DNA of 24,370 bases from Candidatus Latescibacterota bacterium (GCA_038279365.1 JAYODI010000081.1:1409-25778), one strand, 5' to 3'. Positions 6,716 to 22,469 are shown, counted from the first letter of the stretch. A program made the numbers and translations. The notes: generated by a model not told the origin, from the sequence alone.

Positions 6716-6934
6716 CTCAGGTCTTGTGAGGGATGGTTTAGATGCCTTGGTTGGTGGTGGGGGCATTTTCAAGACCCGTACAACCCGCCAAGCGTATATC
6801 CACAACGGGCACTTCGGTTTTGGGTGGCGAACGGTGCCAACTGTGTGCACCTTTTGAGGGTCACGCTGTCTTCATCTCTTAATAAGCAATGGGCGACTTC
6901 TTTCAATAAAAGGTCAAAGATTGAGGGGTTTGTT

Positions 6935-8905
6935 ATGAGCAACTATGTGCAATATTACGGTGTGGATGTGCCTCCTTTAGAACCGATCAAACTGAGTGCT
7001 GGGCCGGTTTCGATGATTTTTGAACCCGCGTTGGGATTTTTGCGGTATATCAAGTTGGGCAATCGCGAGATTTTGCGTGGGCTGTATGTGGCGGTGCGCG
7101 ATCACAACTGGGGTACGGTTGCACCTCAAGTAGACAATGTGCAAGTTGATGATTTGGGTGATGGTTTTGTGTTGACATTTGATGTGTCGTGTGTGTTGCG
7201 CAATATTGATTTTTTTTGGCGGGGGCGTATTACGGGTGATGTAGATGGAACAGTGGTTTATGAAATGGAAGGTGAAGCGCGTTCTACATTTATGCGCAAT
7301 CGCATCGGTTTTTGTGTTTTGCACGCGCCTTCGGCTTGTGCAGGCGATGCATGTGTGATCGAAAAGGCAGATGGTTTGTGTGAAGAAGGCCATTTCCCCA
7401 GTGATATTTCTCCCCACCAACCGTTTGTGGATATGAAGGCCATTGCTCACGAAGTGATTCCGGGTGTGAAAGCACGGGTTGCTTTTGAAGGTGATGTGTT
7501 TGAGATGGAAGATCAGCGCAATTGGACAGATGCGTCTTACAAAACGTATTGCACACCGCTTGGTTTGCCTTTTCCTGTGGAGGTGAAAAAGGGTGAGAAG
7601 GTGCAGCAGTCGGTAAGACTTTCGCTTGAGGGCGATGTATCAGGTGTTTTGCCTGTGGATGATGGGGGTGTGGTCACATTTCGCGCAACGGGCGACGGGG
7701 CTCTGAAATTGCCAGATATTGGCTTGGGTGTGGCCAGTCATGGGCAAGAACTGAGCGATACTGAAATAGCGCGTTTGCAAGTTTTAAATATGTCGCATGT
7801 GCGTGTGGATTTGCATCTGTCGGCACAGGGGTGGCGTGAGGCATTGGAGCGGGCCGTAAAGGATGCTACCGCTTTGGGGGTGGCGTTGGAAGTGGCCCTT
7901 TATGTGAGTGACCAGGCACAAGCAGAGTTGACGGCGTTGGCAGAGGCGTTGGCAAATGCCAACCCCCAGGTGGCGCGTTGGTTTGTGTTTCACAAAGGTG
8001 AAAAGGCGACATCGTCTGGGTGGATGAAGTTGGCACGTGCGGTATTGAAAAAGTATGATACACATCCGCCTTTGGGCGGTGGGGCACCGGCGTATTTTAC
8101 AGAACTCAATCGCAACAGACCGCCCGTAGAAGATTTGGAGTGTGTGGTTTATTCGCTCAACCCACAGGTACACGCATTTGATAATGCGTCGTTGATAGAA
8201 ACCTTGCAAGCTCAAAAGTGGACGGTAGACAGCGCAAAGACTTTTGTGGGCAAATTGCCTATTTCTGTTTCGCCCGTGACGTTTCGCCCACGGTTTAATC
8301 CAAATGCCACGGGTGGCACAGAAGAAACGAATGACGGACATTTGCCATCGCAGGTGGATCCTCGGCAGATGTCTCTTTTTGGTGCTGGGTGGACATTGGG
8401 TTCATTGAAGTATTTGTGTGAGGCGGGAGTGCGCAGCGTGACATATTTTGAAACATCGGGTTGGCGTGGGGTGCAAGAGACCGCCAATGGATCACCTGAG
8501 CCAGGTTTGTTTCCTTCCAAACCCGCATCGGTGTTTCCCCTGTATCATACGTTGGCCTATTTTGGTGGTATGAGAGCCGGTGAGATCGTGCCCTCTTTAT
8601 CCAGTGACACATTGCGCGTTGAAGGTGCCATTTTGCGCCAAGGCCATTGGGTGCGGTTTTTGATTGCGAATCTCACGGCTCAAGAACAGACGGTGTGTGT
8701 GTCTTATTCTGGGCTATTGGGGTCGGTGCGCGTTGAAGTGATGGATGAACGCTATTTTGAAGAAGCAACCGAAAACCCGGAGCGATTTCGCATTCGCAAG
8801 ACGGAAGAACAAGGTGTGGTGATTGTAGGGGTTGAACATGAAGGATTTGAACTGACACTCAAACCCTTTGCGATGGTGTGTGCAAAAGGAACAACAAAAG
8901 AATAG
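6935..8905 (+). CDS. apnL: D-apionate lactonase-like protein
   Basis: ~656 aa with VRDHNWGT, NRIGFCVLH, FEMEDQRNWTDASYKTY, FTELNRNRPP and VDPRQ, motifs I associate with ApnL-type proteins. Co-located with apnO, oiaK and the RLP. ATG 6935 follows GAGGGG. Confidence 0.7.
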   Translation: MSNYVQYYGVDVPPLEPIKLSAGPVSMIFEPALGFLRYIKLGNREILRGLYVAVRDHNWGTVAPQVDNVQVDDLGDGFVLTFDVSCVLRNIDFFWRGRITGDVDGTVVYEMEGEARSTFMRNRIGFCVLHAPSACAGDACVIEKADGLCEEGHFPSDISPHQPFVDMKAIAHEVIPGVKARVAFEGDVFEMEDQRNWTDASYKTYCTPLGLPFPVEVKKGEKVQQSVRLSLEGDVSGVLPVDDGGVVTFRATGDGALKLPDIGLGVASHGQELSDTEIARLQVLNMSHVRVDLHLSAQGWREALERAVKDATALGVALEVALYVSDQAQAELTALAEALANANPQVARWFVFHKGEKATSSGWMKLARAVLKKYDTHPPLGGGAPAYFTELNRNRPPVEDLECVVYSLNPQVHAFDNASLIETLQAQKWTVDSAKTFVGKLPISVSPVTFRPRFNPNATGGTEETNDGHLPSQVDPRQMSLFGAGWTLGSLKYLCEAGVRSVTYFETSGWRGVQETANGSPEPGLFPSKPASVFPLYHTLAYFGGMRAGEIVPSLSSDTLRVEGAILRQGHWVRFLIANLTAQEQTVCVSYSGLLGSVRVEVMDERYFEEATENPERFRIRKTEEQGVVIVGVEHEGFELTLKPFAMVCAKGTTKE

Positions 8906-8984
8906 TGGTTTGAAATGTCGTTTCGTTAGGCAGAATTTTTTTGAGTGAGTACCCGATCAATGTGATGCATGGGAATGGTGCTTT

Positions 8985-9911
8985 ATGGCAAAGCTAACAA
9001 TACAAGGTGATCGTTTTTTAATGAATGGACAGCCTTTCGATATGTGGGGCCTTCGAGCGGCCAGTGGTACCATGCATCAAAAACAAACGGATCATTTGAT
9101 AGCACAATTAGACGATTATTTGGCGTATGGTATTCAGGCCGTAACGGTGTTTTACATGGGCTGTAGTGGCGGGTGGTACGATCCGTTTTCCAGTGACGGC
9201 AAAACACTCGACACCGGCCACCAAGAACGAATGCGTCAAATTGCACAGGCTTGTGACGTGCGTGGGATGGTTTTGATTGTGGGCATTTTTTATCAGCGTG
9301 CACCATTTGGTTTAAAAGATAAAAATGCAGTGGTTGAAGCGGTGCGTGTGGCCACTCGGTCGGTAGAGGGGTTTGAGAATGTGATTATAAACATTGCCAA
9401 CGAACAGAATTCAAAAAATTGGGAAAAGCATGCGGACATGTTCGACTTTCGTGACCCAGAAAGCATTGTGGAATTGTGTGAGGTGGTGCACAAAACGGAT
9501 CGCAATCGGTTGGTGGGTGGTGGGGGATATGATCATGATAAGAATATCATCATTGGGCAATCAGACGCAGTAGATGTGTTGTTGTTTGATACGTGCAACA
9601 TTGAAGACTCTGGCGTGTTGTGTGATCGATTTGTTTCACACGGGGTGGTGAATAAACCGCTTGTGAATGTGGAGTTGTTTGGGGCGTGGACAAAGACCGA
9701 TGTGGTGGGTGTTTTTCCCGATGAGAAAAAAGCCGCGTATTTGCGTGAAGTGGATGTGGCTGCCGATAGAAAAAATTTGTCTGTGTTTTTTCATTCCAAC
9801 TCGTGGTGCCAAGATGAAGGCAATCGGTATGATTTGGCGGGGTCGGGAACCGCGCATGAGCCAGGTATTCGGTGGTATTTTGAGCATGTGAAGAAGGTGC
9901 GTGGTATATAG
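8985..9911 (+). CDS. Hypothetical protein, putative clan-A-like TIM-barrel glycoside hydrolase
   Basis: 308 aa. N-terminal LTIQGDRFLMNGQPF, candidate acid/base motif NIANE and candidate nucleophile motif PLVNVE. No signal peptide. Confidence 0.55.
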   Translation: MAKLTIQGDRFLMNGQPFDMWGLRAASGTMHQKQTDHLIAQLDDYLAYGIQAVTVFYMGCSGGWYDPFSSDGKTLDTGHQERMRQIAQACDVRGMVLIVGIFYQRAPFGLKDKNAVVEAVRVATRSVEGFENVIINIANEQNSKNWEKHADMFDFRDPESIVELCEVVHKTDRNRLVGGGGYDHDKNIIIGQSDAVDVLLFDTCNIEDSGVLCDRFVSHGVVNKPLVNVELFGAWTKTDVVGVFPDEKKAAYLREVDVAADRKNLSVFFHSNSWCQDEGNRYDLAGSGTAHEPGIRWYFEHVKKVRGI

Positions 9912-9929
9912 GCGACAGGAGAGTTTATA

Positions 9930-11189
9930 ATGGCGGAACGCATTGTTGCAAAGTATTTGATGGAGACGGCATTTCCAATTGAACAAGTCGCAGATGTGGT
10001 AGGTGGCGAACAGTCTTCGGGCACGTTTGTCCAAGTGCCCGGTGAAACGGCCGATTTGCGCGAACGGTTTCGGGCACGGGTAGAAAAAATAGATGTGTTG
10101 GAAAAGGTTTCTGAACCAAGTTTGCCTGGTGGGGGGATTCCCAAAGGGGGCAAAAAAGAATACACACGTGCTGAAGTGACGCTGTCTTTTTCACTTGAAA
10201 ATATGGGTGTGAATTTGCCCACGCTCATAGCAACTGTTGCTGGCAATTTGTTTGAGTTGCGCGATGTGTCGGGGCTAAAGCTGTTGGATTTTGACGTGCC
10301 TCAAGCTTTTGCAGAGCGCTATGTGGGGCCACAATTTGGAATTGCTGGCACGCGCAACCTGGCAGGGGTTTTTGATCGTCCCATTATCGGTACTATTGTG
10401 AAGCCGAGTGTGGGGCTGACACCCCAAGCAACGGCCGATTTGACAGGTGAATTGGCACAGGCGGGCATTGATTTTATTAAAGACGATGAACTGATGGCCG
10501 ACCCGCCTCATTCGCCACTCAAAGAACGTGTGGAAAAGGTAATGGCGGTGATCAATCAGGCAGCTGATCGCACGGGCAAGAAGGTGATGTTTGCCTTTAA
10601 TATTACCGATGAATTAGATGCGATGTTGGCACACCACGATACGGTTTTAAAAGCTGGGGGCACGTGTGTGATGGTGAGTCTCAACAGTGTGGGGGCGCCT
10701 GGGGTGGCTTATTTGCGCAAACATTCTCAGTTGCCCATTCACGGGCATCGCAATGGATGGGGCATGTTGACACGGCACCCGATGTTGGGAATCGGTTTTT
10801 CTGCATATCAAAAAATTTGGCGTTTGGCTGGGGTCGATCACATTCATGTCAATGGTTTGCGAAATAAATTTTGGGAGCCCGACGATTCGGTGGTGCAATC
10901 GATAGAGGCGTGTTTTAAGCCTTTTTTAGGCGGATATGAGGTGATGCCTGTGATTTCTTCAGGGCAATCGGTTGGGCAAGCCCCCGATACGTTTAAACGC
11001 GCCAAAGGCGTAGATGTGATGTATTTGGCCGGGGGGGGGATTATGGCGCATCCGGGTGGACCTGCATCGGGCATGAAGGCATTGAGCCAAGCGTGGGAAG
11101 CTGCGGTGAAAGGGATCGATTTGCAAACCTATGCAAAAGAACATGTTGAATTGGCCCAAGCAATTGAAAAGTTTGGCAATTTGTCTTAA
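9930..11189 (+). CDS. RuBisCO-like protein (form IV), 3-oxo-isoapionate-4-phosphate transcarboxylase/decarboxylase type (OiaT/OiaX-like)
   Basis: GEQSSGTF, GTIVKPSVGL, carbamylation motif GIDFIKDDE, HGHRNG, SSGQ, GGGIMAHP. No rbcS or prk in the window; oiaK and apnO are in the same cluster. AGGAG RBS. Confidence 0.9.
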   Translation: MAERIVAKYLMETAFPIEQVADVVGGEQSSGTFVQVPGETADLRERFRARVEKIDVLEKVSEPSLPGGGIPKGGKKEYTRAEVTLSFSLENMGVNLPTLIATVAGNLFELRDVSGLKLLDFDVPQAFAERYVGPQFGIAGTRNLAGVFDRPIIGTIVKPSVGLTPQATADLTGELAQAGIDFIKDDELMADPPHSPLKERVEKVMAVINQAADRTGKKVMFAFNITDELDAMLAHHDTVLKAGGTCVMVSLNSVGAPGVAYLRKHSQLPIHGHRNGWGMLTRHPMLGIGFSAYQKIWRLAGVDHIHVNGLRNKFWEPDDSVVQSIEACFKPFLGGYEVMPVISSGQSVGQAPDTFKRAKGVDVMYLAGGGIMAHPGGPASGMKALSQAWEAAVKGIDLQTYAKEHVELAQAIEKFGNLS

Positions 11190-11201
11190 GGGAGACAAGC
11201 A

Positions 11202-12815
11202 ATGGAAGAAATGGAAGAAACGGAAGCGCACAATGGCAGTGGGCCCGATGTGAGAAAATGGGGGCGTATTGAGATTACGTTTGAAAGTTCAGAGGTATAT
11301 CAAAACCCCATTCAAGATGTGGCATTGCAGGTACTTTTTACGTCGCCTTCAGGTGCTGCAACCCATGTGATGGGGTTTTGGGATGGCAGTACGCGTTTTC
11401 GCGCACGTTTTAGTCCTGAGGAAGAAGGGCTGTGGACATATGTGACGTTTTGTTCGGATATGGACAATGGGGGGTTGCACAATCGGGAGGGTGATTTTGT
11501 GTGTGGCCCTGCCGATACGATTACCGAATTTGATGAACATGGGCCCATTCGTTTGTCGGGTGATCACAGCCATTTTATTCATGCCGATCAAAAGCCGTTT
11601 TTTTGGTTGGCCGATACGGCCTGGAATGGCTGTCTGCTTTCGAGCAAAGATGAGTGGCGTTATTATTTAAGCGAGCGTGTGCGCCAAGGGTTTACGGCTG
11701 TGCAATGGGTGGCCACGCCGTGGCGATCTGCTCCTACAGACAGAGAAGGTCAAAAGGCGTTTGAAGGTGTGGAAAAGATTAAGATCAATCCACGTTTTTT
11801 TCAGCGTTTAGACGAGTGGTTGGAAATGACGTATGACGTGGGGTTGCTCAATGCCCCCGTTTTGCTTTGGACACACCACGGGGGCAAGCACCCCGAAATG
11901 AACCCCGGTGTGGGGTTGCCTGAAGATCAGTTGATTTTGTTGGCCGAATATATGGTGGCGCGTTGGGCGTGTTATCCGGTGGTATGGATTTTGGGTGGTG
12001 ATGGCAAGTATGATGGGGAGTTGGCTGAGCGATGGAAAAAGGTTGGCAGTACGGTTTTTGGTCGCGGGTTACACGCTCCTGTTGCCATGCATGTGGTGGG
12101 GCAGAGTTTTCCCGTTGAAGAATTTCGCAACGAAAGTTGGATGGATATTTTGGGTTATCAAAGTGGGCATGGAGATAATGACAAGACGTTGCAATGGATT
12201 GTGACCGGCCCACCTGCCGAAGATTGGAAAAAGAGGCCTCGCCAGTTTTATATGAATATGGAACCTGCTTATGAAAATCATGTGGCCTATCATTCCAAAA
12301 AGCCACACGATGCGGCGTCTGTTCGAATGGCCATTTATTGGAGTTTGCTCAATGCGCCAACTGCTGGGGTCACGTATGGTGGGCATGGGGTGTGGGGTTG
12401 GGATGATGGCAAGTCTGCGCCGATGGATCACCCCAGTTCGGGCACGCCCTTACCGTGGCGCGATGCGCTAATTATGGAAGGCGCAGAGCAAATGCGTCAT
12501 TTGCGAGATGCCTTTGAAACGGTCGATTGGTGGCAACTGCGTCCAGCGCCAGAGCTTTTGGCCGAGCAACCAGGTGAAGAAGATGTGCATGACCACATTC
12601 TTATTTCTAAATCGGATGCCAATAACTGGGTGGTTGCCTATACGCCTCAAGGCAAGGCCGTGAAGGTGAAGATGGCGGGGTTGCCTGAGCGTTTGGGGGC
12701 GGTGTGGTACAACCCACGCACAGGTGAACCCGAAGCGGCCATTCACCAAATGGATGGCGATGTGCGGGTTTATGAAACGCCGGATGAGTACGATTGGTTG
12801 TTGGTGATGGCTTAA
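11202..12815 (+). CDS. DUF5060/DUF4038 protein, GH140-like apiosidase with C-terminal beta domain
   Basis: N-terminal GFWDG..F.ARFSP..EG.W.Y, then PFFWLADTAW, WILGGD, QSGHG, EPAYE, GVTYGGHGVW and C-terminal WYNPRTG. Confidence 0.8.
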   Translation: MEEMEETEAHNGSGPDVRKWGRIEITFESSEVYQNPIQDVALQVLFTSPSGAATHVMGFWDGSTRFRARFSPEEEGLWTYVTFCSDMDNGGLHNREGDFVCGPADTITEFDEHGPIRLSGDHSHFIHADQKPFFWLADTAWNGCLLSSKDEWRYYLSERVRQGFTAVQWVATPWRSAPTDREGQKAFEGVEKIKINPRFFQRLDEWLEMTYDVGLLNAPVLLWTHHGGKHPEMNPGVGLPEDQLILLAEYMVARWACYPVVWILGGDGKYDGELAERWKKVGSTVFGRGLHAPVAMHVVGQSFPVEEFRNESWMDILGYQSGHGDNDKTLQWIVTGPPAEDWKKRPRQFYMNMEPAYENHVAYHSKKPHDAASVRMAIYWSLLNAPTAGVTYGGHGVWGWDDGKSAPMDHPSSGTPLPWRDALIMEGAEQMRHLRDAFETVDWWQLRPAPELLAEQPGEEDVHDHILISKSDANNWVVAYTPQGKAVKVKMAGLPERLGAVWYNPRTGEPEAAIHQMDGDVRVYETPDEYDWLLVMA

Positions 12816-12833
12816 ATACTGCAAGGAGTTGTG

Positions 12834-13784
12834 ATGAACGTTGTATATCTCGAACCTGTTCCTGAAGATGTTGAAGCCATTGTTCGGGAATGTTTACCAA
12901 GCGATTTGTTTTTGCGTGTTTTAAAGGCAGGTGAAAAACCTGAGGATGTGGTGGCCGATGCAGATTTTTTGTTGGTGGCCACCACAAAGGTGACCGAGGG
13001 GGTGTTGGCCAAGGCCACAAAGCTTAAGCACATCCAACACCAAGGCGTGGGGTATAACAATATTGATTTGGTTGCGTCCAAAGCCAAAGGCATCTCAATA
13101 GGTTTGACACCAGAAGGTACAAGCATTCCGGTGGCTGAACATGTTTTTTTGCAGATTTTAAGTTTGTATCGCAAACTGTTTGAGGCGCGTCAATCATTGC
13201 GCGATGGCAAATGGTTGCAGTGGGAATTGCGTCCTTATTCATACGATTTGGTGGGCAAAACGGTTGGCATTGTTGGCTTGGGGCGCATTGGACGCGAGTT
13301 GGCTGTGCGTTTGCGTGCGTTTGGATGTGAGGTGTTTTATACCGATGCCCAACGTATTTCTGAAGTGGATGAACTTGATTTGGGTGTGGTGTTTACTGAG
13401 TTGGATGATTTGTTGCAACGCTCAGATATCGTGAGTTTGCATGTGCCATTGTTGCCTGAAACGCGCAATTTGATTGATCAACGCGAATTGGAATTGATGA
13501 AACCCAATGCCATTTTGATCAATGCCGCGCGGGGTGGGCTAATTAATGAAGCGGCATTGGTGACGGCTTTGAATGCGGGGCAAATTGCAGGGGCAGGTTT
13601 GGATGTATTTGAACAGGAACCCCCACCCAAAGATCATCCGTTGTTGTTTATGGACAATGTGGTTGCGGTGCCTCACATTGCCGCAGGTACACGCGATGCC
13701 TATGCCACCAAAATGCGCGCAGCCTTTGCCAATATGTTGCGGGTGAAACGCGGGGAACGGCCCATAAATGAAGTGGATCTTTAA
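12834..13784 (+). CDS. D-isomer-specific 2-hydroxyacid dehydrogenase (NAD-dependent)
   Basis: GVGYNNID, VAEH, Rossmann motif GLGRIG with a downstream Asp, and catalytic Arg (NAARG), Glu (DVFEQEP) and His (PHIA). Confidence 0.92.
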   Translation: MNVVYLEPVPEDVEAIVRECLPSDLFLRVLKAGEKPEDVVADADFLLVATTKVTEGVLAKATKLKHIQHQGVGYNNIDLVASKAKGISIGLTPEGTSIPVAEHVFLQILSLYRKLFEARQSLRDGKWLQWELRPYSYDLVGKTVGIVGLGRIGRELAVRLRAFGCEVFYTDAQRISEVDELDLGVVFTELDDLLQRSDIVSLHVPLLPETRNLIDQRELELMKPNAILINAARGGLINEAALVTALNAGQIAGAGLDVFEQEPPPKDHPLLFMDNVVAVPHIAAGTRDAYATKMRAAFANMLRVKRGERPINEVDL

Positions 13785-13811
13785 GTGTTGTTTTTTTGAA
13801 TGGAGATGGAT

Positions 13812-14486
13812 ATGGCACTACCCGAAGGTTGGACGATTGTAACCAATTATGATAAACCCTCTGCCGATGTGGTGGCACAATTTAAAGGTGTAGAGACGGG
13901 GCCAGTAGGAGATGCTTTGGGGCGTTCGGCAGCAATGGATGCGGCCATTAAGCCCATTGTTGCGGGTCTAAATGTATTGGGGACAGCGGTGACGGTGAGC
14001 ACACGACCCTGTGATAATTTGGCATGTTATAAAGCGTTAGATGTGGCTGGCCCTGGCGATGTGTTGGTGATTGCGGTGCAGGGGTACCCTACCCATTCGG
14101 TGTGGGGCGATTTGACCAGTGAAATTGCCAAGACCAAAGGGCTTGCTGGCATGGTGACCGATGGTATGGTGCGCGATGTGATGGGATTAACGGAGGTGGG
14201 ATTACCTGTTTTTGCCAGAGGGTTAACACCCAACAGCCCACAAAAAGATGGCCCTGCCGAGATCAATGTGCCTGTTGTGTGTGGTGGTATTTTGGTGAAT
14301 CCGGGCGATATTGTGGTGGGGGATACCGATGGCATTGTGGTGATACCCAAAGCACGTGTCGAAGAGGTGCTTGAAAAAGTGAAAGTCATTGCAATGAAGG
14401 AGGCGGGTATTCGGGAGAGCATTCGCGCCAATGGCGGTTTGCCCGATTCGGCCATTCAGATGTTGAAGGACAAAGGGTTGATGTAG
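13812..14486 (+). CDS. RraA family / 4-hydroxy-4-methyl-2-oxoglutarate aldolase-like protein
   Basis: DAL, GTAVTV, DNL, PGDVLV, WGDL, DGMVRD, PVFARG, PGDIVVGDTDGIVVIP. Start could be 13800, 13806 or 13812; 13812 fits the GGAG spacing best. Confidence 0.88.
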   Translation: MALPEGWTIVTNYDKPSADVVAQFKGVETGPVGDALGRSAAMDAAIKPIVAGLNVLGTAVTVSTRPCDNLACYKALDVAGPGDVLVIAVQGYPTHSVWGDLTSEIAKTKGLAGMVTDGMVRDVMGLTEVGLPVFARGLTPNSPQKDGPAEINVPVVCGGILVNPGDIVVGDTDGIVVIPKARVEEVLEKVKVIAMKEAGIRESIRANGGLPDSAIQMLKDKGLM

Positions 14487-14511
14487 TCTGTTTGTGGACG
14501 GATAAAAGACA

Positions 14512-15957
14512 GTGAATGGTGATGTGATGTTTTTAGGTGATCAGGTTGTTACTAAAACAGATCTTTTGCGTGCGTTGCCACCCGAATGGGCAGAGGATGT
14601 GTCGGTTGATTTGCGTGCACGTATTCAGATGCGTCATCGCAAGTTGGTGGTGTTGGATGATGACCCAACAGGGGCACAAGCCATGCACAGTGCGCCAGTG
14701 TTAACACATTGGAATCGTGATGTGTTGCGTTTGGCATTGTTGAATGATTCGGCTTTGTTCTTTATTGTGAGCAACACGCGTGGGTTGCCTCAAGAAGAGG
14801 CGGTTGCTGTGACTGGCGAGATTGTGATGGCTGTTGCAGATGTGGCAACTGAGTGTGGCGTAGTGTTTGATGTGTTGGTGCGCGGTGATTCAACTTTGCG
14901 CGGGCATTACCCACATGAACTCAATGTGGTACGCGAGGTTTTGGGTGCAAATGGACAACGGTTTGATGGTGTGGTTTTATGCCCATTTTTTTTAGAAGGT
15001 GGGCGTCTCACAGCATTTGATGTGCAGTGGGTGACCGATGGTGAACAGCTGATTCCTGCCGGACAAACCGAATATGCTCGTGATCGAACATTTGGTTATA
15101 GCAAGTCGAATCTACGCGATTGGGTGGTTGAAAAAACGCGTGGAATGGTTTTGCGAGACAATGTGGTTTCTATTGGCTTAAATGTGATTCGCGAACAAGG
15201 TCCTCAAGGCGTTTGTAAGGTTTTGATGGATGTGCGTGATGGGCAACCCGTTGTGGTCAATGCGGTGAGTTATCGCGACTTGGAAGTGTTTGTTGCAGGT
15301 TTGTTAGATGCCGAAGATGCAGGTAAACGCTTTTTGTTTCGTACGGCGGCGTCTTTTTTAAAAGTGAGAAGTGGCCGTTTAGAGCGTGGCCTGTTGCGTG
15401 GTTCTGATTTTGGAATGTTGGAAGGGGTTGGGGGATTGGTTGTTGTAGGGTCATATATCCAAAAGTCCACGGCCCAATTGACAGAAGCGTTGGCCGTTGG
15501 GGGTGTGGTGGGGGTTGAATTACTGGTTGCAAAGGTATTAAATCGGCAAGATCGAGAACGTGAAATTTTACGCGTGACAGGTGAGATTGAACGTGCTCTT
15601 GGGTTGGATAAAGACGTGATTGTTTTTACAAGTCGCAACCAAGAGGTCGCTGGAGATTTGGCTGCTGGCAAAAAAATCGGGACGGCTTTGGTCGATGTGG
15701 TTGAGAGATTGGAAGTGCGTCCTCGGTATGTGATGGTTAAAGGTGGAAACACGGCTATTTCAATTGTGAGAGATGGTTTGCACACACAATCGGCATGGGC
15801 TTTGGGGCAAATTTTACCCGGTGTGCCTGTGTGGCAATTGGGTGTAGAAAGTCGTTTGCCCCAAGTGCCTTGTGTGGTGTTTCCTGGCAATGTAGGTGAG
15901 GCGGATAGTTTGGCGAAAGCGATCCATATTTTACGTGAGGCACGTGATGCTATATAA
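14512..15957 (+). CDS. Four-carbon acid sugar kinase family protein (DUF1537), DDDPTG subtype
   Basis: VVLDDDPTG, NTR, RGDSTLRGHY, PFFLEGGR, VGSY, KGGNT, GQILPGVP, FPGNVG. Start uncertain (GTG 14512 or ATG 14527). Confidence 0.88.
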   Translation: MNGDVMFLGDQVVTKTDLLRALPPEWAEDVSVDLRARIQMRHRKLVVLDDDPTGAQAMHSAPVLTHWNRDVLRLALLNDSALFFIVSNTRGLPQEEAVAVTGEIVMAVADVATECGVVFDVLVRGDSTLRGHYPHELNVVREVLGANGQRFDGVVLCPFFLEGGRLTAFDVQWVTDGEQLIPAGQTEYARDRTFGYSKSNLRDWVVEKTRGMVLRDNVVSIGLNVIREQGPQGVCKVLMDVRDGQPVVVNAVSYRDLEVFVAGLLDAEDAGKRFLFRTAASFLKVRSGRLERGLLRGSDFGMLEGVGGLVVVGSYIQKSTAQLTEALAVGGVVGVELLVAKVLNRQDREREILRVTGEIERALGLDKDVIVFTSRNQEVAGDLAAGKKIGTALVDVVERLEVRPRYVMVKGGNTAISIVRDGLHTQSAWALGQILPGVPVWQLGVESRLPQVPCVVFPGNVGEADSLAKAIHILREARDAI

Positions 15958-16783
15958 AAAACATACTGTGCACTATGAAGTGCTCAATCAAAAACCCGAT
16001 GGACAAGATCGATATTGCGACCTTGAGGTGCATGCTTCTGTTGAAGAATTGGAACAGTTGGCGCGGGAGGGGTATTTGGTGCGCGAAGGAATGTTTCAGG
16101 GTGAGGCATTGTGTGCATTGCAAGATGCTTTGGATCGTTTGGAAAAAAACGAGCGTGATCGCTATAATGAAAACCCTGCACAAGAGCGCTCTTGGGGGCA
16201 TATTCCGCGCCATTTGATGGACAAAGATCCGGTATTTTTGGATCTGTTGAAATGCCCACCGATTTTGTCTGTGGCGCGAGCAATGATGGGACCATTGGTG
16301 CGTTTACGAGGGTTGAGCGCACGCATCAGTTATCCGGGCCCCGTGTTACACGAAACGCCTTGGCACCAACATTTGCGGGTGGTGTCCAATCCATTGCCGA
16401 CTTGGTTCTCACGCCCCCATGCTTTGGATGCGTTGATTTATTTGGATGATTTAAACGAACAAACAGGCGCAGTAGAAATTGTGCCAGGTTCTCATGATTG
16501 GTTGGATCGTGAACCACCCAGTGGTTATGATCAATCTGTAGAGGGGGCGCTTAAAGTGTGCGTGAAGGCTGGGGGCGTGGTGATGATTCATTCCAATTTG
16601 TGGCATCGCGGGTTGCCCACATTGGGTGCAAAACGCAGGATGTTGATTTTGGGTTATACACCCACATGGTTGCGACGTTCACCGCATGGGGGGGAGCCAC
16701 CTTCTGATGGGTTGACACAAGCGGTTTTGCACGGTGATGACGAAGAAGCGCGTATTCTATTGGGCAAGGGTGGGTATACCTGA
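15947..16783 (+). CDS. PhyH-like Fe(II)/2-oxoglutarate dioxygenase-fold protein
   Basis: REGYLV, WHQH, IYLDD, GAVEIVPGSH, AGGVVMIHSNLWHRG and a downstream RR. ATG 15947 overlaps the end of the kinase gene. Confidence 0.85.
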   Translation: MLYKKHTVHYEVLNQKPDGQDRYCDLEVHASVEELEQLAREGYLVREGMFQGEALCALQDALDRLEKNERDRYNENPAQERSWGHIPRHLMDKDPVFLDLLKCPPILSVARAMMGPLVRLRGLSARISYPGPVLHETPWHQHLRVVSNPLPTWFSRPHALDALIYLDDLNEQTGAVEIVPGSHDWLDREPPSGYDQSVEGALKVCVKAGGVVMIHSNLWHRGLPTLGAKRRMLILGYTPTWLRRSPHGGEPPSDGLTQAVLHGDDEEARILLGKGGYT

Positions 16784-16869
16784 GTTCTGTTTGGTTAAAA
16801 ACTGAAAGATAAAAATTATTAAGGTGCGAAGGTTTATTGAAGACCTTCTTATTTGAAAAAGGAGTTCAT

Positions 16870-19044
16870 ATGTCTGATCGCATAGAAGTTGGGAACTTGA
16901 AAATTGATGCGGAATTATTCAATTTGGTAAAAGATGAAATCACACCAGGCACGGGTGTGGATGTGGATGCCCTTTGGAAAGGTTTTGGCAAGATCGTGGA
17001 CGATTTGGCACCCAAAAATCGTGCATTGTTAGAAAAACGCGATGCCATTCAAGCAAAGATTGATGCTTGGCATGTACAACACAAAGGACAGCCCATTGAT
17101 GCAGTGGCCTACAAATCATTTTTAAAAGAGACAGGATATTTGCAACCAGAAGGCGATCATTTTCAAGTGTTGACCACAAATGTTGATCCTGAGGTGGCAA
17201 CTGTTGCAGGACCTCAATTGGTGGTGCCTGTAGATAATGCACGGTATTGCCTCAATGCTGCCAATGCACGCTGGGGCAGTTTGTATGATGCGTTCTATGG
17301 TACGGATGTGATTTCGGAAGATGGTGGTGCCGGAAAAACGGGTGGATACAATCCTGTGCGTGGTGAAAAGGTGATTGCACAAGCCCAAGCCTTTTTGGAC
17401 GAAACGGTGCCTTTGGCAAGTGGGTCGTACGCCACCGTGACACAATTTTCTCTGGATGATGATGGGGTTAAAAAGACGTTGGTGGCCACTGTAAATGGGG
17501 AACGCACAGGTTTAAAGTCACCTGAGCAATTTGTCGGGTATGTGGCTGAAGAAGGTGAACTGTCTGTGGTCTTGCTTCAAAACAATGGCTTGCATATCGA
17601 AATACATATTGATGCCAATCACCCCATTGGTAAAACACATCCTGCGGGTATCAAAGATGTGGTTTTAGAGTCGGCCATTACCACCATTCAAGATTGTGAA
17701 GATTCTGTTGCTGCCGTAGATGCCGAAGACAAAGTAAGGGTATATCGCAATTGGTGTGGGTTGATGAAGGGAACTTTGGAAACGTCTTTTAAAAAAGGAG
17801 ACCAAACGGTATCTCGGCGTTTAAATCCAGACCGTCATTATATGGGTGTTGATGGGCAACCTCTCACATTACCAGGGCGCAGTGTGCTGTTGGTACGCAA
17901 TGTTGGAATGCATATGTATACCGATGCCGTGGTGACATCTGAGGGGGCAGATATTCCAGAAGGATTTTTGGATGCCTTGGTGACGTCTTTGGCCGCCATT
18001 CACGATCTGAAGGGCAATGGAGCATTTAAAAACAGTCGCTCGGGTAGCATTTACATTGTGAAGCCCAAAATGCATGGCCCAGAAGAAGTGGCGGCTACGG
18101 TTGAATTGTTTGGGCGAGTGGAAGCGGTTTTGGGTTTGGAAAAGAATACCATGAAGATTGGTATTATGGATGAAGAACGACGCACGACGGTCAATTTGAA
18201 ACGGGCCATTTGGGAAGCGCGTGAGCGATTGATTTTTATTAATACGGGCTTTTTAGATCGCACAGGTGATGAGATGCACACAAGTATGGAAGCTGGAGCA
18301 ATGTTGCCCAAGGGTGAGATTAAGAATCAGCCTTGGTTGGGGGCTTATGAAGATTGGAATGTGGATGTGGGCATTGAAACAGGTTTGGTGGGGAAGGGGC
18401 AAATTGGCAAAGGGATGTGGGCTATGCCCGATCAGATGAAATCTATGGTTGATTCCAAAATGGGTCACCCCAACGCTGGAGCCAGTACGGCCTGGGTGCC
18501 TTCGCCAACTGCGGCAACGTTGCATGCGATTCATTATCACCAAGTGAATGTGTCTGCTCGTCAAGATGCATTGGCAAAGCGAGAAAGGGCGAGTTTGGAT
18601 GCCATTTTGACGCCACCGTTATTAGATCGCACACTGGATGAGGCCACCATTCAACGTGAGTTGGATAACAATGCCCAAGGTATTTTGGGTTATGTGGTGC
18701 GATGGATTGATCAAGGAATTGGATGTTCAAAAGTGCCCGACTTAAATGATGTGGGTTTGATGGAAGATCGCGCAACATTGCGCATTTCAAGCCAGCATAT
18801 TGCCAACTGGTTGCATCAAGGCATTGTCAGTGCCGATCAGGTGCGGGCAACATTTGAAAAAATGGCCTCTGTTGTGGATCGCCAAAATGCGGGTGATGCG
18901 CTATATAAAAATATGGCACCCAACTTTGATGGCATCGCTTATCAGGCCGCTTTGGATTTGGTGTTTAAAGGACGTGATGTGGCCAATGGTTATACAGAAC
19001 CCGTGTTGCATGCGCGTCGTCGTGAAGCAAAAGCATCTTCTTAA
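16870..19044 (+). CDS. glcB: Malate synthase G
   Basis: ~724 aa. [93 protein letters not shown] before ATG 16870. Confidence 0.97.
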
Positions 19045-19055
19045 GGAGTGTTTCT

Positions 19056-20177
19056 ATGCTTACACCACCCAATGCAGAAATGATAGCACAATGGCGACAC
19101 CATTTACAAGATGAAGCAGATGCGGCTTTTTTATATCGGCGCTTGTCAGATCATGAGCCCAATCAGAAGAAGAAGGATCTCTATTGGCAATTATCAGAAG
19201 TGGAAGATCGGCATACGGAAGCGTGGCGAAATGTATTTACAGAATATGGCATCGCGTTTAAAGAGCCACGCCCATCACTGAAATCGCGTTTTTTGGCATG
19301 GGTCGGTTCTCATTTTGGTGCAAAAGTACTGCTTTCCTTTTTGTTGCGAGAAGAAGGACAAGAGGTAAAGGCGTATCTGGATTTGTATCAAAACAGTGCT
19401 CCCGGAAAGTCAAAAGAAACCGCACTTACATTGGCACAAGAATCGGCTGGGCATGCTGAGACCTTGTCTGAAATTGCCGATATCGAAGGCGAGCCATGGC
19501 ACAATGCCGATTCGGGTGGTTTTGTGCGCAATGTGGTGTATGGTTTTAATGATGGCTTGACGGCCAATTTTGGTTTGGTGGCTGGGGTAATTGGGGCTGC
19601 CGTTGAACCTCATGTGATTTTGGTCACAGGGGTGGCTGGCACCATTGCCGATGCTTTGTCGATGGGGTCTTCGGGATATTTGGCCGCTAAGAGCGAGCAA
19701 GAGGTATATAGTTATGAAATCGAAATGGAGCGCACGGAAATTCAATTAATGCCCGAATTGGAAACTGAAGAGTTGGCATTGATTTATCAAACGCGTGGCA
19801 TTGACAAGGAACAAGCTTTGGAACTGGCCAAAGATGTGATGTCTGATCAGGAACGGGCTTTGGAAGAGAAGGTTCGTGAAGAATTGAAAATTGGTGCCCC
19901 TCATGCCACACCTATGCAAGAAGCGTGGATAACTGGCATAGCAACAGCTGTGGGTGCATTTATCCCAGTGGTGCCTTTTATGGTGTTGTCTGGTGCAACA
20001 GCGATGTGGACATCGTTTGCCATTGCGATGTTGTCGCATTTTGCGGTTGGCGCGGCACGCAGTTTGTTTACCGGACGCAGTATTTTTCGCAGTGGTGTCG
20101 ATATGTTGGTGGTGGGGCTTGGTGTTGCCATTGGTGGGTATGTGGTAGGTGACTTGATGGTTCGTTGGTTGATGTAG
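19056..20177 (+). CDS. VIT1/CCC1 family iron/manganese transporter with N-terminal ferritin/rubrerythrin-like domain
   Basis: N-terminal DEADAAFLY...EDRH...ESAGH helices, then RNVVYGFNDGL, GTIADALSMGSSGYLA and C-terminal transmembrane helices. Confidence 0.88.
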   Translation: MLTPPNAEMIAQWRHHLQDEADAAFLYRRLSDHEPNQKKKDLYWQLSEVEDRHTEAWRNVFTEYGIAFKEPRPSLKSRFLAWVGSHFGAKVLLSFLLREEGQEVKAYLDLYQNSAPGKSKETALTLAQESAGHAETLSEIADIEGEPWHNADSGGFVRNVVYGFNDGLTANFGLVAGVIGAAVEPHVILVTGVAGTIADALSMGSSGYLAAKSEQEVYSYEIEMERTEIQLMPELETEELALIYQTRGIDKEQALELAKDVMSDQERALEEKVREELKIGAPHATPMQEAWITGIATAVGAFIPVVPFMVLSGATAMWTSFAIAMLSHFAVGAARSLFTGRSIFRSGVDMLVVGLGVAIGGYVVGDLMVRWLM

Positions 20178-20187
20178 GGAGTGGGTG

Positions 20188-21561
20188 ATGTCTGATCTTA
20201 TTTTAAGTTATTATGGCGATGATTTTACAGGTTCGACCGATGTGATGGAGGCATTGTCTTTTGCTGGGTTGAAGACCGTGTTGTTTTTGTCTCCCCCTAA
20301 GCTTGAGCAGATTGCAAAATTTAAAGATGTGAAAGCTGTGGGTGTGGCAGGGTGCACGCGTTCCATGTCACCCGATGATATGGAACGGGAACTCACGCCT
20401 GTATATGAAGCATTTCGGAAACTGAAGACGCCGATTGTACATTATAAGACGTGTTCCACATTTGATTCGGCACCCGATGTGGGAAGCATTGGGCGTGCAA
20501 TCGATTTGGGGCAAGACGTTTTTGGGGGTGCTTTTGTACCGCTTGTTGTGGGGGCACCGGTTTTAAACAGATATTGTGCATTTGGCAATTTGTTTGCTCG
20601 GTCTGGTTTAGATAGCGATTTGTTTCGACTAGACCGACACCCCACCATGAAACAGCATCCGATTACGCCCATGACGGAAGCCGATTTGCGATTGCATTTG
20701 GGCAAACAAACCCATAAGTCTATTGGGTTGTTGGATGTTTTGGCATTGGGTTTGGATGATAATGAGTTGGCGCATGCTTTTGACGCGGTGATGAAAGATA
20801 AACCCGATGTGTTGTTGTTTGATACGGTTTACAATGCACATTTGCCAAAGATTGGGCGTTTGATTTGGCAACAAGCACAAAAGAATCCGTTATTTGTTGC
20901 GGGGTCTTCGGGGGCAGAATATGCATTGGTGGCACATTGGCGCGACGTGGGGATTTTGCCCGAAACATTTGTGAAACCGACAGTGAATGCGGTTGATCAA
21001 ATTGTGATTGTGTCGGGGAGTTGTTCACCTGTTACGGCCAATCAAATAGATCATGCTGTACAACATGGCTTTGCCGAGGTTGCGCTTGATCCTGTGTTAT
21101 TTGCTGATCCTTCTGCTGTTGATGGCGCGGTTGAAGCAGGTATTCAAGCAGGCTTAAAGGCAATGGCGGGTGGGCAAAGTGCCATTTTGCATACAGGGCG
21201 AGGGCCCGGTGATCCGCGCATTGCTCAAACGACAGACCATCTCAAAAGACAAGGGTATACAGATCTGGACATCAAGCTCAAAAGTGGAGAAGTAATTGGT
21301 ACTGCTGTGGGGCGTATTTTGAAAGGGATTTTGACACAGTCAAAATTGAAACGCGCGGCAACAGCAGGGGGTGATACCTCGTATTATGTGGCCAAAGCTT
21401 TGGGTATTGAGGCATTGGAAGTGGTCGCACCCACAGCACCAGGGTCACCGATGTGTCGTATTTTTGGGGCCGGTTTGGATGGTATTGAAATGACGTTTAA
21501 AGGTGGGCAGGTGGGCAAGGTTGATTTTTTTATGGGAATAAAAACTGGGAAATTTTCATAA
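20188..21561 (+). CDS. oiaK: 3-oxo-isoapionate kinase (four-carbon acid sugar kinase family)
   Basis: YYGDDFTGSTD, HYKTCSTFDS, GSIG, RYCAFGNLFA, RLDRHPTM..HPITPMTEADL, GSSG, SGSCS, GGDTS, KGGQVG. Adjacent to apnO. Confidence 0.8.
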   Translation: MSDLILSYYGDDFTGSTDVMEALSFAGLKTVLFLSPPKLEQIAKFKDVKAVGVAGCTRSMSPDDMERELTPVYEAFRKLKTPIVHYKTCSTFDSAPDVGSIGRAIDLGQDVFGGAFVPLVVGAPVLNRYCAFGNLFARSGLDSDLFRLDRHPTMKQHPITPMTEADLRLHLGKQTHKSIGLLDVLALGLDDNELAHAFDAVMKDKPDVLLFDTVYNAHLPKIGRLIWQQAQKNPLFVAGSSGAEYALVAHWRDVGILPETFVKPTVNAVDQIVIVSGSCSPVTANQIDHAVQHGFAEVALDPVLFADPSAVDGAVEAGIQAGLKAMAGGQSAILHTGRGPGDPRIAQTTDHLKRQGYTDLDIKLKSGEVIGTAVGRILKGILTQSKLKRAATAGGDTSYYVAKALGIEALEVVAPTAPGSPMCRIFGAGLDGIEMTFKGGQVGKVDFFMGIKTGKFS

Positions 21562-21576
21562 TTTAAGGAGTTCGAC

Positions 21577-22410
21577 ATGGCAATTAAAATTGCATTAATC
21601 GGCGCAGCAGGCAGTATGGGCACGCGGGCTTATAACGCATTGGGAAAAGACCCCAATTACGAATTGTTTTGTGTGGAAAGCCCTGGGGGGGAAGAAAAAT
21701 TGCGCGAAAAGGGCATCACGTGTGTGCCCATGGAAGAGGCCGTTAAAAAGGCAGATGTGGCTTTGATGACGGTGCCCGATATTTTGGTGGGCAAGGTATC
21801 ACATTTGGTGGTGCCGCATTTAAAGTCTGGAGGGATGTTGATTGTTTTAGACCCAGCCGCGCCCTATGCTGGTGAATTGCCCAAGCGTGATGATGTGACT
21901 TATTTTGCCACGCATCCTGCGCACCCACCGGTGTTTAATGACGAAGTGGATATGGATGCCCGGCGTGATTTTTTTGGGAGTGGGTTGGCCAAACAAGCCA
22001 TTGTCAATGCATTGATACAAGGGCCAGAAGAAGATTATGCCAAAGGTGAAGCCATTGGCAGTCGTATGTTTCAACCCATTTTGCGTTCGCATCGGGTCAC
22101 GTTGGAACAGATGGCCATGTTGGAGCCTGCGATGTCAGAAACGATGGCGGCCACGTGTATTACAGTCATGCGCGAGGCCATGGATGAAGCCATAGCACGT
22201 GGTGTGCCTGCCGAAGCCGCACGCGATTTTATGATGGGGCATATAAATATCGAGTTGGCCATTGTGTTTGATGAAATTGATTGGGAGTTTTCAGATGGTG
22301 CAAAAGTGGCCATTGAAAAAGCCAAAGAGAAAGTGTTTCAGGCCGATTGGAAGAAAGTATTTGACCGAGAGCATTTGCTGGCAAGTGTGAAGGATATTGT
22401 GAAAGGGTAA
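21577..22410 (+). CDS. apnO: D-apionate oxidoisomerase
   Basis: Rossmann motif GAAGSMG, VPD, LDPAAP, HPxHPPVF, DFFG, AKQ, LEPAMSE, AARDFMMGH, FSDGA. Downstream of oiaK with an AGGAG RBS. Confidence 0.82.
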   Translation: MAIKIALIGAAGSMGTRAYNALGKDPNYELFCVESPGGEEKLREKGITCVPMEEAVKKADVALMTVPDILVGKVSHLVVPHLKSGGMLIVLDPAAPYAGELPKRDDVTYFATHPAHPPVFNDEVDMDARRDFFGSGLAKQAIVNALIQGPEEDYAKGEAIGSRMFQPILRSHRVTLEQMAMLEPAMSETMAATCITVMREAMDEAIARGVPAEAARDFMMGHINIELAIVFDEIDWEFSDGAKVAIEKAKEKVFQADWKKVFDREHLLASVKDIVKG

Positions 22411-22469
22411 GCCTCAATTCGTCGAGGCGGGATATCCTACGTGCCTTTGTTTTTTATTGGAATGTATTT

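Follow-up and report, generated by a model that had tools for sequence, protein, structure and literature searches.

Gene array of the window

The DNA analysed here, a stretch of 24,370 nucleotides from a Candidatus Latescibacterota bacterium (GCA_038279365.1, JAYODI010000081.1:1409-25778; hereafter the window), carries an array of genes related to those of D-apiose and D-apionate catabolism in which a RuBisCO-like protein (RLP), a D-2-hydroxyacid dehydrogenase (2HADH) and malate synthase G (MSG) are encoded together. An open reading frame (ORF) listing combined with Pfam and NCBIfam scans of 21 ORFs confirmed the calls and coordinates that a preliminary description had given for these three genes, as well as its remark that tetrose-phosphate isomerases, aceA and glcDEF are missing from the window: the triose-phosphate isomerase (TIM, PF00121), RpiB (PF02502), isocitrate lyase and GlcD, GlcE and GlcF families had no match among the 21 ORFs. 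The array (6824-23123) lies entirely on the plus strand, with spacers of 7-79 nt or overlaps between consecutive genes (Table 1), and reaches past the segment 9930-19044 considered in that description, to an ApnL-like gene upstream and to VIT, OiaK-like, ApnO-like and GntR genes downstream. Seven genes, encoding GH140, 2HADH, an RraA-like protein, a second DUF1537 kinase, PhyH, MSG and VIT, stand between those of the RLP and the OiaK-like kinase. The true start of the PhyH ORF is probably downstream of 15896. On balance, the evidence tips slightly toward an operon-like D-apiose/D-apionate cluster with an RLP similar to the transcarboxylase/hydrolase OiaT, where MSG would act as the sink of the C2 product without the participation of 2HADH.

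Table 1. Genes of the window and the profile matches on which their assignment is based.
Feature	Position	Strand	Evidence
uvrB, nadC, TANGO2-like, acyltransferase, DinB-like, ppa	5' of array, in that order	+	Pfam/NCBIfam scans
ApnL-like D-apionolactonase	6824-8905	+	NF049900 ApnL 331.9 bits, cut-off 750 not reached
308-aa ORF, possibly GH5-like hydrolase	8985-9911	+	no Pfam or NCBIfam family
RuBisCO-like protein (RLP), OiaT-like (non-OiaX) group	9930-11189	+	PF00016 239.8 bits; NF042437 OiaX 512.6 bits
GH140 (apiosidase-like) glycoside hydrolase	11202-12815	+	PF13204 239.4 bits, DUF5060, Collagen_bind_2
D-2-hydroxyacid dehydrogenase (2HADH), uncharacterised subfamily	12831-13784	+	PF02826 219.3 bits, PF00389 71.7 bits
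RraA-like class II aldolase / beta-keto-acid decarboxylase family	13800-14486	+	PF03737 154.1 bits
Second DUF1537 acid-sugar kinase (kin1), divergent	14512-15957	+	PF07005 162.1 bits, PF17042 101 bits
PhyH-family Fe(II)/2-oxoglutarate dioxygenase	15896-16783	+	PF05721 76.3 bits
Malate synthase G (MSG)	16837-19044	+	TIGR01345 1074.8 bits (cut-off 989.15), NF002825 1193.8 bits
VIT1-family membrane protein, N-terminal extension of ~150 aa	19056-20177	+	PF01988 200.6 bits, residues 157-365
OiaK-like 3-oxo-isoapionate kinase	20185-21561	+	NF042436 OiaK 478.8 bits, best match; cut-off 700 not reached
ApnO-like D-apionate oxidoisomerase	21577-22410	+	PF16896 200.4 bits
GntR/FCD-family regulator	22470-23123	+	PF07729 91 bits, PF00392 64.8 bits
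coaX	3' of array	+	Pfam/NCBIfam scans

Three further metagenome runs yielded contigs that span the junctions between the 308-aa ORF and RLP, GH140 and 2HADH, and 2HADH, RraA-like and kinase genes, and likewise those of PhyH-MSG, MSG-VIT and OiaK-ApnO-GntR. With most junctions bridged in this way, the order of the array is not an assembly artefact of one sample. Three studies of estuarine and marine metagenomes include runs with near-identical DNA, and the closest genomic relative is a Candidatus Latescibacterota metagenome-assembled genome (MAG) with a 90% identical RLP.

Placement of the RuBisCO-like protein

According to PMC6302742, the RLP of Xanthobacter autotrophicus is a transcarboxylase/hydrolase and that of Agrobacterium radiobacter K84 a decarboxylase (OiaX), the single OiaT characterised so far falling in a different subgroup from the window RLP. 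PMC13753588 describes a route 2 composed of ApnO, OiaK and OiaT, and ties the isomerases EryH and EryI to the erythrulose-phosphate routes. The preliminary description had assigned the window RLP to the OiaT type, and its exclusion of the decarboxylase type is well supported by profile scores, alignment positions and gene neighbourhoods. The OiaX model NF042437 is the best and sole specific NCBIfam match of the window RLP, at 512.6 bits, that is, 187 bits under the equivalog cut-off of 700 bits, which none of 78 relatives reaches either (440-536 bits). In tblastn searches of plasmids, the genes named OiaX by PGAP were 44-48% identical to the window RLP and unnamed “RuBisCO large subunit family” genes 50-60%. 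Identity amounts to 58.9% with an RLP of Ancylobacter (Xanthobacteraceae, the same family as Xanthobacter), 57.6-58.0% with seven proteins named 3-oxoisoapionate-4-phosphate transcarboxylase/hydrolase by JGI, and 44.7-47.9% with OiaX; a look-up of exact-sequence clusters for the RLPs of ten isolates returned generic names only.

An unrooted tree of 92 RLPs split an OiaX clade, consisting of three proteins named OiaX by PGAP plus a Shinella protein, from the remaining 88, to which the window RLP belongs, with an SH-aLRT of 100. Twenty alignment columns are invariant in this clade and occupied by another residue in at least 93% of the remaining sequences, which together with one His/Gln column makes 21 discriminating columns. 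The window RLP has the non-OiaX state at 21/21 of them (the OiaX state at 0/21), as have the Ancylobacter RLPs and the seven JGI-named proteins. Alignment to the form III RuBisCO 6hun and the 92-sequence alignment identified E27, N106, K158, K184-D186-E187, H271/H273/R274, H304/H306, K313 and S344 of the window RLP as the counterparts of E60, N123, K175, K201-D203-E204, H292/H294/R295, H325/H327, K334 and S379 (RuBisCO residues, here and below, in spinach numbering). The window RLP thus retains the positions E, N, K, KDDE, HxHR, DHxH and K of RuBisCO. At the counterparts of E60, N123, K177, H325 and H327, the OiaX clade carries D, G, A, Q and Q, whereas the window RLP has E27, N106, S160, H304 and H306, and the E, the N and the two H are kept in all 88 RLPs outside the OiaX clade. 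Residues 27, 106, 160, 304 and 306 could be used as a signature separating decarboxylase-type from RuBisCO-like apionate RLPs, and the RuBisCO-type ones may be needed for the carboxyl transfer and hydrolysis carried out by OiaT.

The gene neighbourhoods point in the same direction. In Rhizobium bangladeshense and R. anhuiense, the OiaX clusters begin with oiaX, followed in order by genes for a kinase, a TIM and an RpiB-family isomerase and then by ApnO-like, ABC transporter and Gfo/Idh/MocA genes. Homologues of these two isomerases were detected in none of 80 loci of window RLP relatives (up to 10 kb on each side, some of them ended by contig ends). The Rhizobium isomerases used as queries retrieved one TIM and two weak RpiB-like genes from the genome to which the window belongs (98.5% complete), which appears devoid of a dedicated tetrose-phosphate isomerase paralogue. 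Like OiaT genes, the window RLP gene shares its array with OiaK-like and ApnO-like genes in the absence of isomerases. Clusters of the non-OiaX kind can be minimal, as the ApnO-RLP-kinase set of Burkholderia sp. YI23, and one of them, in Cupriavidus pinatubonensis, has eno, pyk and ppc on its flanks, a setting that suits 3-phosphoglycerate (3-PGA) as a product. Judging from its sequence and its neighbours, the window RLP likely produces 3-PGA and glycolate. The OiaT-type assignment of the preliminary description is supported as far as membership of the OiaT-like group is concerned (58-59% identity to Xanthobacteraceae RLPs), although the non-OiaX set as a whole does not emerge as a clade once the tree is rooted (see below).

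Core genes, accessory genes and the synteny of malate synthase G

Across the 80 loci, homologues of the window genes accompany the RLP with very different frequencies: OiaK in 78, ApnO in 29, ApnL in 19, GH140 in nine, 2HADH in three and MSG in one. The ApnO-like protein of the window is 51% identical over 278 columns (its full length) to the product of an ORF located just upstream of the RLP gene on plasmid pBB1 of Cupriavidus necator N-1, which we presume to be F8GV06. A characterised ApnO with that accession is included in Table 1 of PMC13753588, where it is given no organism. The ApnL-like lactonase has NF049900 as its sole NCBIfam match, spanning positions 3-592 of 595 of the profile, and its homologues are also found near the RLP in genomes of the same family; according to PMC13753588, such lactonases are clustered with route-2 genes in many genomes. 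Homologues of the GntR regulator occur near the RLP in several clusters of the same phylum.

No homologue of ApnO was detected in the retrieved flanks of 51 of the 80 RLP-OiaK loci, notably those of Bacteroidota and many Verrucomicrobiota; these organisms may obtain 3-oxo-isoapionate by another way or use another substrate. A D-apiose dehydrogenase of the known Gfo type was not found in the window cluster. Elsewhere in the genome, a Gfo/Idh/MocA oxidoreductase gene (G000:C148:46999-48105; L103 7000-8106) adjoining genes for a DUF6785/DUF6784 protein and a CBM9-like protein scored 351 bits against the Gfo protein of a Rhizobium apiose cluster, whereas the 58 paralogues ranking behind it reached at most 83 bits, and is a candidate for a D-apiose dehydrogenase encoded away from the operon. 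The 308-aa ORF is absent from the sister species (genome G064), where RLP directly follows ApnL; its ESM Atlas feature matches (0.97 and 0.96), to be taken as a lead only, are to clusters with 20-28% of PF00150 members.

The membership of 2HADH in the general D-2-hydroxyacid dehydrogenase family is clear (PF02826, 219.3 bits), but its score stays under the cut-off of every more specific NCBIfam model, including those of phosphoglycerate dehydrogenase (TIGR01327, 251.1/454), glyoxylate reductase (NF009714, 236.3/455) and GhrB (193/492). Matches in the PDB are a near tie between phosphoglycerate dehydrogenase (194.7 bits), 2-ketogluconate reductase (190.2 bits) and glyoxylate reductase (185.1 bits), and a homologue search yielded automatic names only, mostly of phosphoglycerate dehydrogenase-like proteins and few of glyoxylate reductases. 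Its nearest relatives outside are proteins of Chloroflexota MAGs (55-65% identity), also named automatically. Orthologues are found in three of 168 genomes of the phylum, all of this genus, and among the loci of RLP relatives only weak paralogues appear, in 2 of 79 other loci. We also considered 2HADH as the missing D-apiose dehydrogenase, since assorted dehydrogenases adjoin the RLP in other clusters, but gave this little credit, 2-hydroxy carboxylates being the substrates of the family.

The RraA-like protein, whose best PDB match is 3noj, a CHA aldolase/oxaloacetate decarboxylase (113.1 bits), is replaced in the sister species by a 439-aa beta-lactamase-like ORF and absent from the third species of the genus (G063). 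The latter keeps 2HADH, PhyH and MSG, with the second kinase reduced to a remnant of ~60 aa. In the window, DtnK (40.2 bits) is the sole NCBIfam match of this kinase, for which no PDB match was found at 1e-5. Six other genomes of the phylum encode homologues (45-51% identity) in other sugar-acid contexts, comprising SDR, SGL lactonase and enolase-superfamily genes or xylose-isomerase-like barrels with neither RLP nor MSG nearby, which suggests an acid-sugar kinase of another pathway.

MSG possesses all the expected Pfam domains (MS_N, MSG_insertion, MS_TIM-barrel and MS_C), passes the TIGR01345 equivalog cut-off and is the sole malate synthase of the genome (whole-genome PF01274 search). Its association with the RLP is much narrower than the distribution of either enzyme. 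Malate synthase is present in 109 of the 168 phylum genomes; the family includes 30 further genomes, of which 28 have malate synthase and six the RLP; the RLP (at least 68% identity) occurs in 12 of the 168, nine of them with malate synthase. The one locus, among the 80, where MSG lies near the RLP belongs to the 90%-identical sister species, and within the phylum this proximity is restricted to the genus of the window. In the nine RLP-bearing genomes outside it (G066, G068, G069, G120, G121, G116, G044, G067 and G113), neither MSG nor 2HADH, the second kinase or PhyH was found near the RLP, three of these contigs being only 5-8 kb long. Other partners occur instead, such as a nucleoside-hydrolase-like gene and a sulfatase in genus g4, or an aldo/keto reductase, a mannitol-dehydrogenase-like gene and an ABC transporter in genus g25. 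Three RLP-bearing genomes (G116, G120 and G121; 88-92% complete) had no malate synthase match, and the OiaT-like pathway apparently runs there without this enzyme. In g25, malate synthase was found in 27 of 31 genomes, and these are three of the four lacking it, the fourth being 58% complete.

In the sister genus g6, none of 21 genomes contains the RLP. PhyH, MSG and coaX follow each other in all 11 g6 loci inspected (L136-L146, L166; for example G086:C1:2863500-2883400), often with overlapping PhyH and MSG ORFs, and PhyH lies immediately 5' of MSG in these 11 loci as in the window and the two other species of its genus. The presence of this arrangement in genomes devoid of RLP indicates that the placement of PhyH-MSG next to coaX is an older syntenic feature of the family and unconnected with the RLP. 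In the complete g6 genome G086, a GH140 homologue (900 bits) is located directly upstream of PhyH-MSG, with a glycogen-debranching-enzyme gene also preceding. Genus g4 has apionate genes upstream of coaX without MSG, which is found elsewhere among heparinase-like genes. The array of the window may have derived either from a full ancestral array with later losses or from the merger of two neighbouring loci. Distant PhyH relatives, in 16 metagenome loci, had no MSG nearby except in loci of at least 74% identity that repeat the window cluster; their neighbourhoods were mixed (SDR, RraA-like, amidohydrolase, sulfatase and PQQ dehydrogenase genes) and gave no clue to the function of PhyH, and the ESM Atlas returned generic PhyH clusters only.

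In sister genera (G066, G068 and G069; loci L159, L161 and L160, respectively), the apionate cluster occupies the same neighbourhood, with uvrB-nadC upstream and birA-coaX downstream, and contains different inserts, among them genes for an MFS transporter, a sulfatase and, immediately behind the RLP, a nucleoside-hydrolase-like protein. Gene gain and loss seem to be concentrated in the region upstream of coaX.

Fate of the C2 unit

The genome lacks any match to isocitrate lyase (PF00463), for which the same search was positive in 8 of 14 reference genomes. Together with the single malate synthase, this implies that MSG serves glyoxylate from outside the glyoxylate cycle, and glyoxylate derived from glycolate would be a reasonable substrate. 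The flow from glycolate to glyoxylate and malate put forward in the preliminary description is thus plausible in this organism, and we lean slightly toward it, but not through 2HADH as had been proposed there. With textbook potentials of about -0.09 V for glyoxylate/glycolate and about -0.32 V for NAD+/NADH, the oxidation of glycolate by NAD+ is uphill by about +44 kJ/mol, which would hold steady-state glyoxylate orders of magnitude below the typical Km of malate synthase even under the pull of MSG; known glycolate oxidisers use O2 or quinones. On chemical grounds, this difficulty, of which the preliminary description itself had warned, weighs most heavily against the 2HADH step, and it is very unlikely that 2HADH catalyses glycolate oxidation.

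A better candidate is encoded by a gene pair on another contig (G000:C74:19742-22706; L101 5743-8707), where a GlcD-like gene (516.6 bits, cut-off 567.9) adjoins one for a GlcF-like Fe-S/CCG protein (267.6/333 bits, tied with LdhH). Its flanks contain an aldehyde dehydrogenase, two more PhyH-family genes, a sulfatase and a BNR-repeat protein. The preliminary description had noted that glcB is accompanied by neither aceA nor glcDEF; aceA was not found in the rest of the genome either, and for glcDEF this pair was found, below the cut-offs, no search having been aimed specifically at GlcE or GlcG. No glycolate oxidase subunit was found beside MSG in the window. Two homologues of FMN-dependent 2-hydroxyacid oxidases/dehydrogenases are also encoded in the genome. 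GlcD-like genes near the RLP were seen in only 2 of 89 loci, which argues against a general link with glycolate oxidase. PhyH, whose gene is the closest companion of MSG both here and in relatives devoid of RLP, offers a further, very doubtful possibility, namely that it forms glyoxylate by hydroxylating C2 of glycolate to glyoxylate hydrate or by releasing it from a carboxymethyl-type glycan substituent; if so, the series from OiaT to glycolate, glyoxylate and malate would become thermodynamically workable in this genus, with O2 and 2-oxoglutarate as its driving force in place of NAD+ or a quinone. To our knowledge, no such activity has been described, and no published link of apionate with glycolate, malate synthase or Latescibacter was found in the literature searched.

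The pathway that we infer from gene identities and neighbourhoods would begin with D-apiose or D-apionate from plant or algal pectic glycans, available to an estuarine or marine Latescibacterota bacterium. GH140 would free apiose-containing material, a D-apiose dehydrogenase encoded elsewhere (possibly the C148 Gfo/Idh/MocA protein) would make the lactone, and the ApnL-like lactonase would convert it to D-apionate. The ApnO-like enzyme would then produce 3-oxo-isoapionate, to be phosphorylated by the OiaK-like kinase and cleaved by the OiaT-like RLP into 3-PGA and glycolate. In this genus, these core genes are interleaved with those of 2HADH, the RraA-like protein, the second kinase, PhyH, MSG and VIT, and co-transcription with the apiose genes would allow MSG, as glyoxylate sink, to take the C2 product. 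Glycolate would most likely be oxidised by the C74 GlcD/GlcF-like flavoprotein/Fe-S oxidoreductase or by means of another high-potential oxidant, and most likely not by the NAD-linked 2HADH.

Several observations weigh against parts of this pathway. A rooted tree of 43 sequences, whose root is one distant RLP of the same phylum (40% identity) on a very long branch, nests the OiaX clade within the radiation, on a stem of 1.26, as sister to a Bacteroidota/Verrucomicrobiota group (SH-aLRT 86) and topologically nearer to the window RLP than the Xanthobacteraceae are. The phylogeny thus reproduces the separation of the window RLP from OiaX when unrooted but places OiaX inside the radiation when rooted, so that the clade status of the non-OiaX set is not established and a third activity is possible. 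The connection with OiaT is made through relatives of the same family as Xanthobacter, at 58-59% identity, and through automatic JGI names, the characterised OiaT and OiaX sequences themselves not being among those compared. All core proteins of the window score under the NCBI equivalog cut-offs, including those of OiaK (478.8/700) and ApnL (331.9/750), as does the GlcD/GlcF-like pair, for which the identity of a D-lactate dehydrogenase is just as possible. Each of the three species of the genus keeps 2HADH in the interval from GH140 to PhyH-MSG, including the one that has lost the second kinase, which is the pattern predicted if it had a role in glycolate salvage. The transcription of the array as a single unit is a presumption; promoter and terminator scans of the window gave numbers at the level of shuffled sequences (observed/expected counts of 22/24.0 and 20/21.5, respectively) and are therefore uninformative on transcription units. 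Contigs of a metatranscriptome (X20) include short near-identical pieces over ApnL, the end of RLP, 2HADH, RraA-like and OiaK, and partial pieces with loose ends only over MSG, but contigs cannot show transcripts and RNA libraries can contain DNA, so that they allow no conclusion on co-expression.

One alternative is that the RLP is not OiaT-like in function but an OiaX-like decarboxylase, its tetrose phosphate being processed by TpiA and RpiB-like proteins or by the accessory enzymes, or that it catalyses a third reaction, with no glycolate formed in either case. In its favour are the proximity of OiaX to the window subgroup in the rooted tree, the OiaX model as the best and only specific match, the position of the single characterised OiaT in another subgroup (PMC6302742) and the presence of one TIM and two RpiB-like genes in the genome. 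However, the window RLP and all 78 relatives remain under the OiaX cut-off, none of the 21 columns has the OiaX state in the window RLP, the counterparts of E60, N123, H325 and H327 are kept, and isomerase genes, which directly follow the kinase in OiaX clusters, are absent from all 80 loci. The long stem of the OiaX clade also suggests that a change of function took place there. Most simply, OiaX would be a fast-evolving, derived lineage from which the RuBisCO-type residues have disappeared, the remaining RLPs probably keeping an ancestral OiaT-like chemistry, and we consider a window RLP that releases no glycolate very unlikely. A dedicated, selected module in which 2HADH oxidises glycolate with NAD(P)+ and MSG pulls the product to malate, as in the preliminary description, is no more credible. 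RLP, 2HADH and MSG do share an array throughout the three species of the genus, including the GH140-2HADH-(kinase remnant)-PhyH-MSG order of G063, and the confinement of the 2HADH orthologue to the genus would mean that it arrived or stayed with the arrangement; glyoxylate reductases are among its best structural matches (185.1 and 180.8 bits) and aceA is absent. Nevertheless, besides the unfavourable energetics, 2HADH scores far below the glyoxylate reductase cut-off and equally well with phosphoglycerate dehydrogenase and 2-ketogluconate reductase, its orthologue is missing from all nine other RLP loci of the phylum, and the genome encodes a GlcD/GlcF-like pair. The proposed line from RLP through 2HADH to MSG is also at odds with the rarity of MSG beside the RLP (1/80), the PhyH-MSG-coaX synteny in RLP-less g6 and the absence of malate synthase from 3 of 12 RLP-bearing genomes.

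A less remote, though still rather unlikely, alternative is that GH140-PhyH-MSG-coaX was a resident locus of the family around which the apionate genes settled, MSG serving glyoxylate of another origin, such as environmental glycolate or a PhyH-like product, and 2HADH, the RraA-like protein and the second kinase belonging to a separate acid-sugar pathway. The conserved g6 loci, with GH140 in front in G086, fit this possibility well, as do the far wider distribution of malate synthase than of the RLP in the family (28/30 and 6/30), the g4 genomes in which the apionate genes adjoin coaX with MSG elsewhere, the second-kinase homologues away from RLP and MSG, and the loss or replacement of the RraA-like gene and of the second kinase within the genus. 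Yet the block is inserted between the RLP and the OiaK/ApnO genes with spacers of 7-59 nt, and could hardly avoid being co-regulated with apiose catabolism. Moreover, GH140 is itself apiose-related, so the g6 locus may be the remnant of a fuller apiose cluster, and an OiaT-type reaction must dispose of its glycolate somehow. We retain, with the slight preference stated above, an apionate operon with MSG as C2 sink.

Comparison with known systems places the core of the array closest to the oxidative D-apionate route 2 of Carter et al. 2018 (ApnO-OiaK-OiaT; summarised in PMC13753588 and PMC6302742). ApnO-like, OiaK-like and RLP genes occur together without isomerases, the ApnL-like lactonase is clustered with them, and the RLP groups with those of Xanthobacteraceae and not with OiaX. 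The window differs in its seven additional genes between RLP and OiaK, its core scores under the cut-offs and its lack of a Gfo-type D-apiose dehydrogenase in the cluster. The route 1 clusters of R. bangladeshense (p1) and R. anhuiense (pRA_T24_2; loci L083 and L090) have homologous RLP, kinase, ApnO and lactonase/dehydrogenase sets, with an RLP 47.9% identical to that of the window, but TIM-like and RpiB-like genes directly after the kinase, an RLP at the 700-bit cut-off by PGAP naming, and D, G, A, Q and Q at the five signature positions. In Escherichia coli, glycolate utilisation is encoded by glcDEFGB, including malate synthase G. There MSG consumes glyoxylate, as it would in our genome, which has GlcD-like and GlcF-like proteins and lacks isocitrate lyase, whereas the glcB of the window is separated from glcD and glcF and lies inside a sugar operon beside a PhyH-family dioxygenase. 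The photorespiratory or phosphoglycolate salvage of true RuBisCO, studied for example in C. necator (PMC7486775), is comparable in that an enzyme of the RuBisCO superfamily yields a C3 phosphoacid and a C2 acid needing recovery. A malate-synthase branch of such salvage exists. By contrast, the window RLP would release free glycolate in a catabolic hydrolase reaction, instead of 2-phosphoglycolate in an oxygenase side reaction, with no CO2 fixation and with a link to MSG that is not conserved beyond one genus. The core is a further member of the known oxidative apionate route 2, and the PhyH-MSG block with the genus-specific 2HADH is a lineage-specific variant of it.

The retention of RuBisCO-type residues and the constant absence of adjacent isomerases extend to a large RLP set from Latescibacterota, Verrucomicrobiota, Planctomycetota, Bacteroidota, Acidobacteriota, Pseudomonadota and haloarchaea; a single OiaT and a single OiaX have been characterised. 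Formation of glycolate may thus be what prevails in nature, the decarboxylase being derived from it; in that case, every such organism would have a C2 by-product to dispose of. In few clusters is a candidate sink joined physically to the pathway as malate synthase is here, and the window cluster is therefore a convenient system in which to study the recovery of free glycolate released by a RuBisCO homologue. With its NAD-linked dehydrogenase step unsupported and its arrangement limited to one genus, it is best seen as a lineage-specific embellishment of a known pathway.

Two minor features of the window deserve mention. The position of the VIT1-family gene between MSG and OiaK is kept in the sister species. 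ApnO prefers Mn2+ according to PMC13753588, and a role of the VIT1-family protein in metal supply is conceivable, as pure speculation. Finally, the strand bias is strikingly uniform over the 24 kb (1-24370), with every gene on the plus strand and a positive GC skew in every 1-kb window (0.17 to 0.34).

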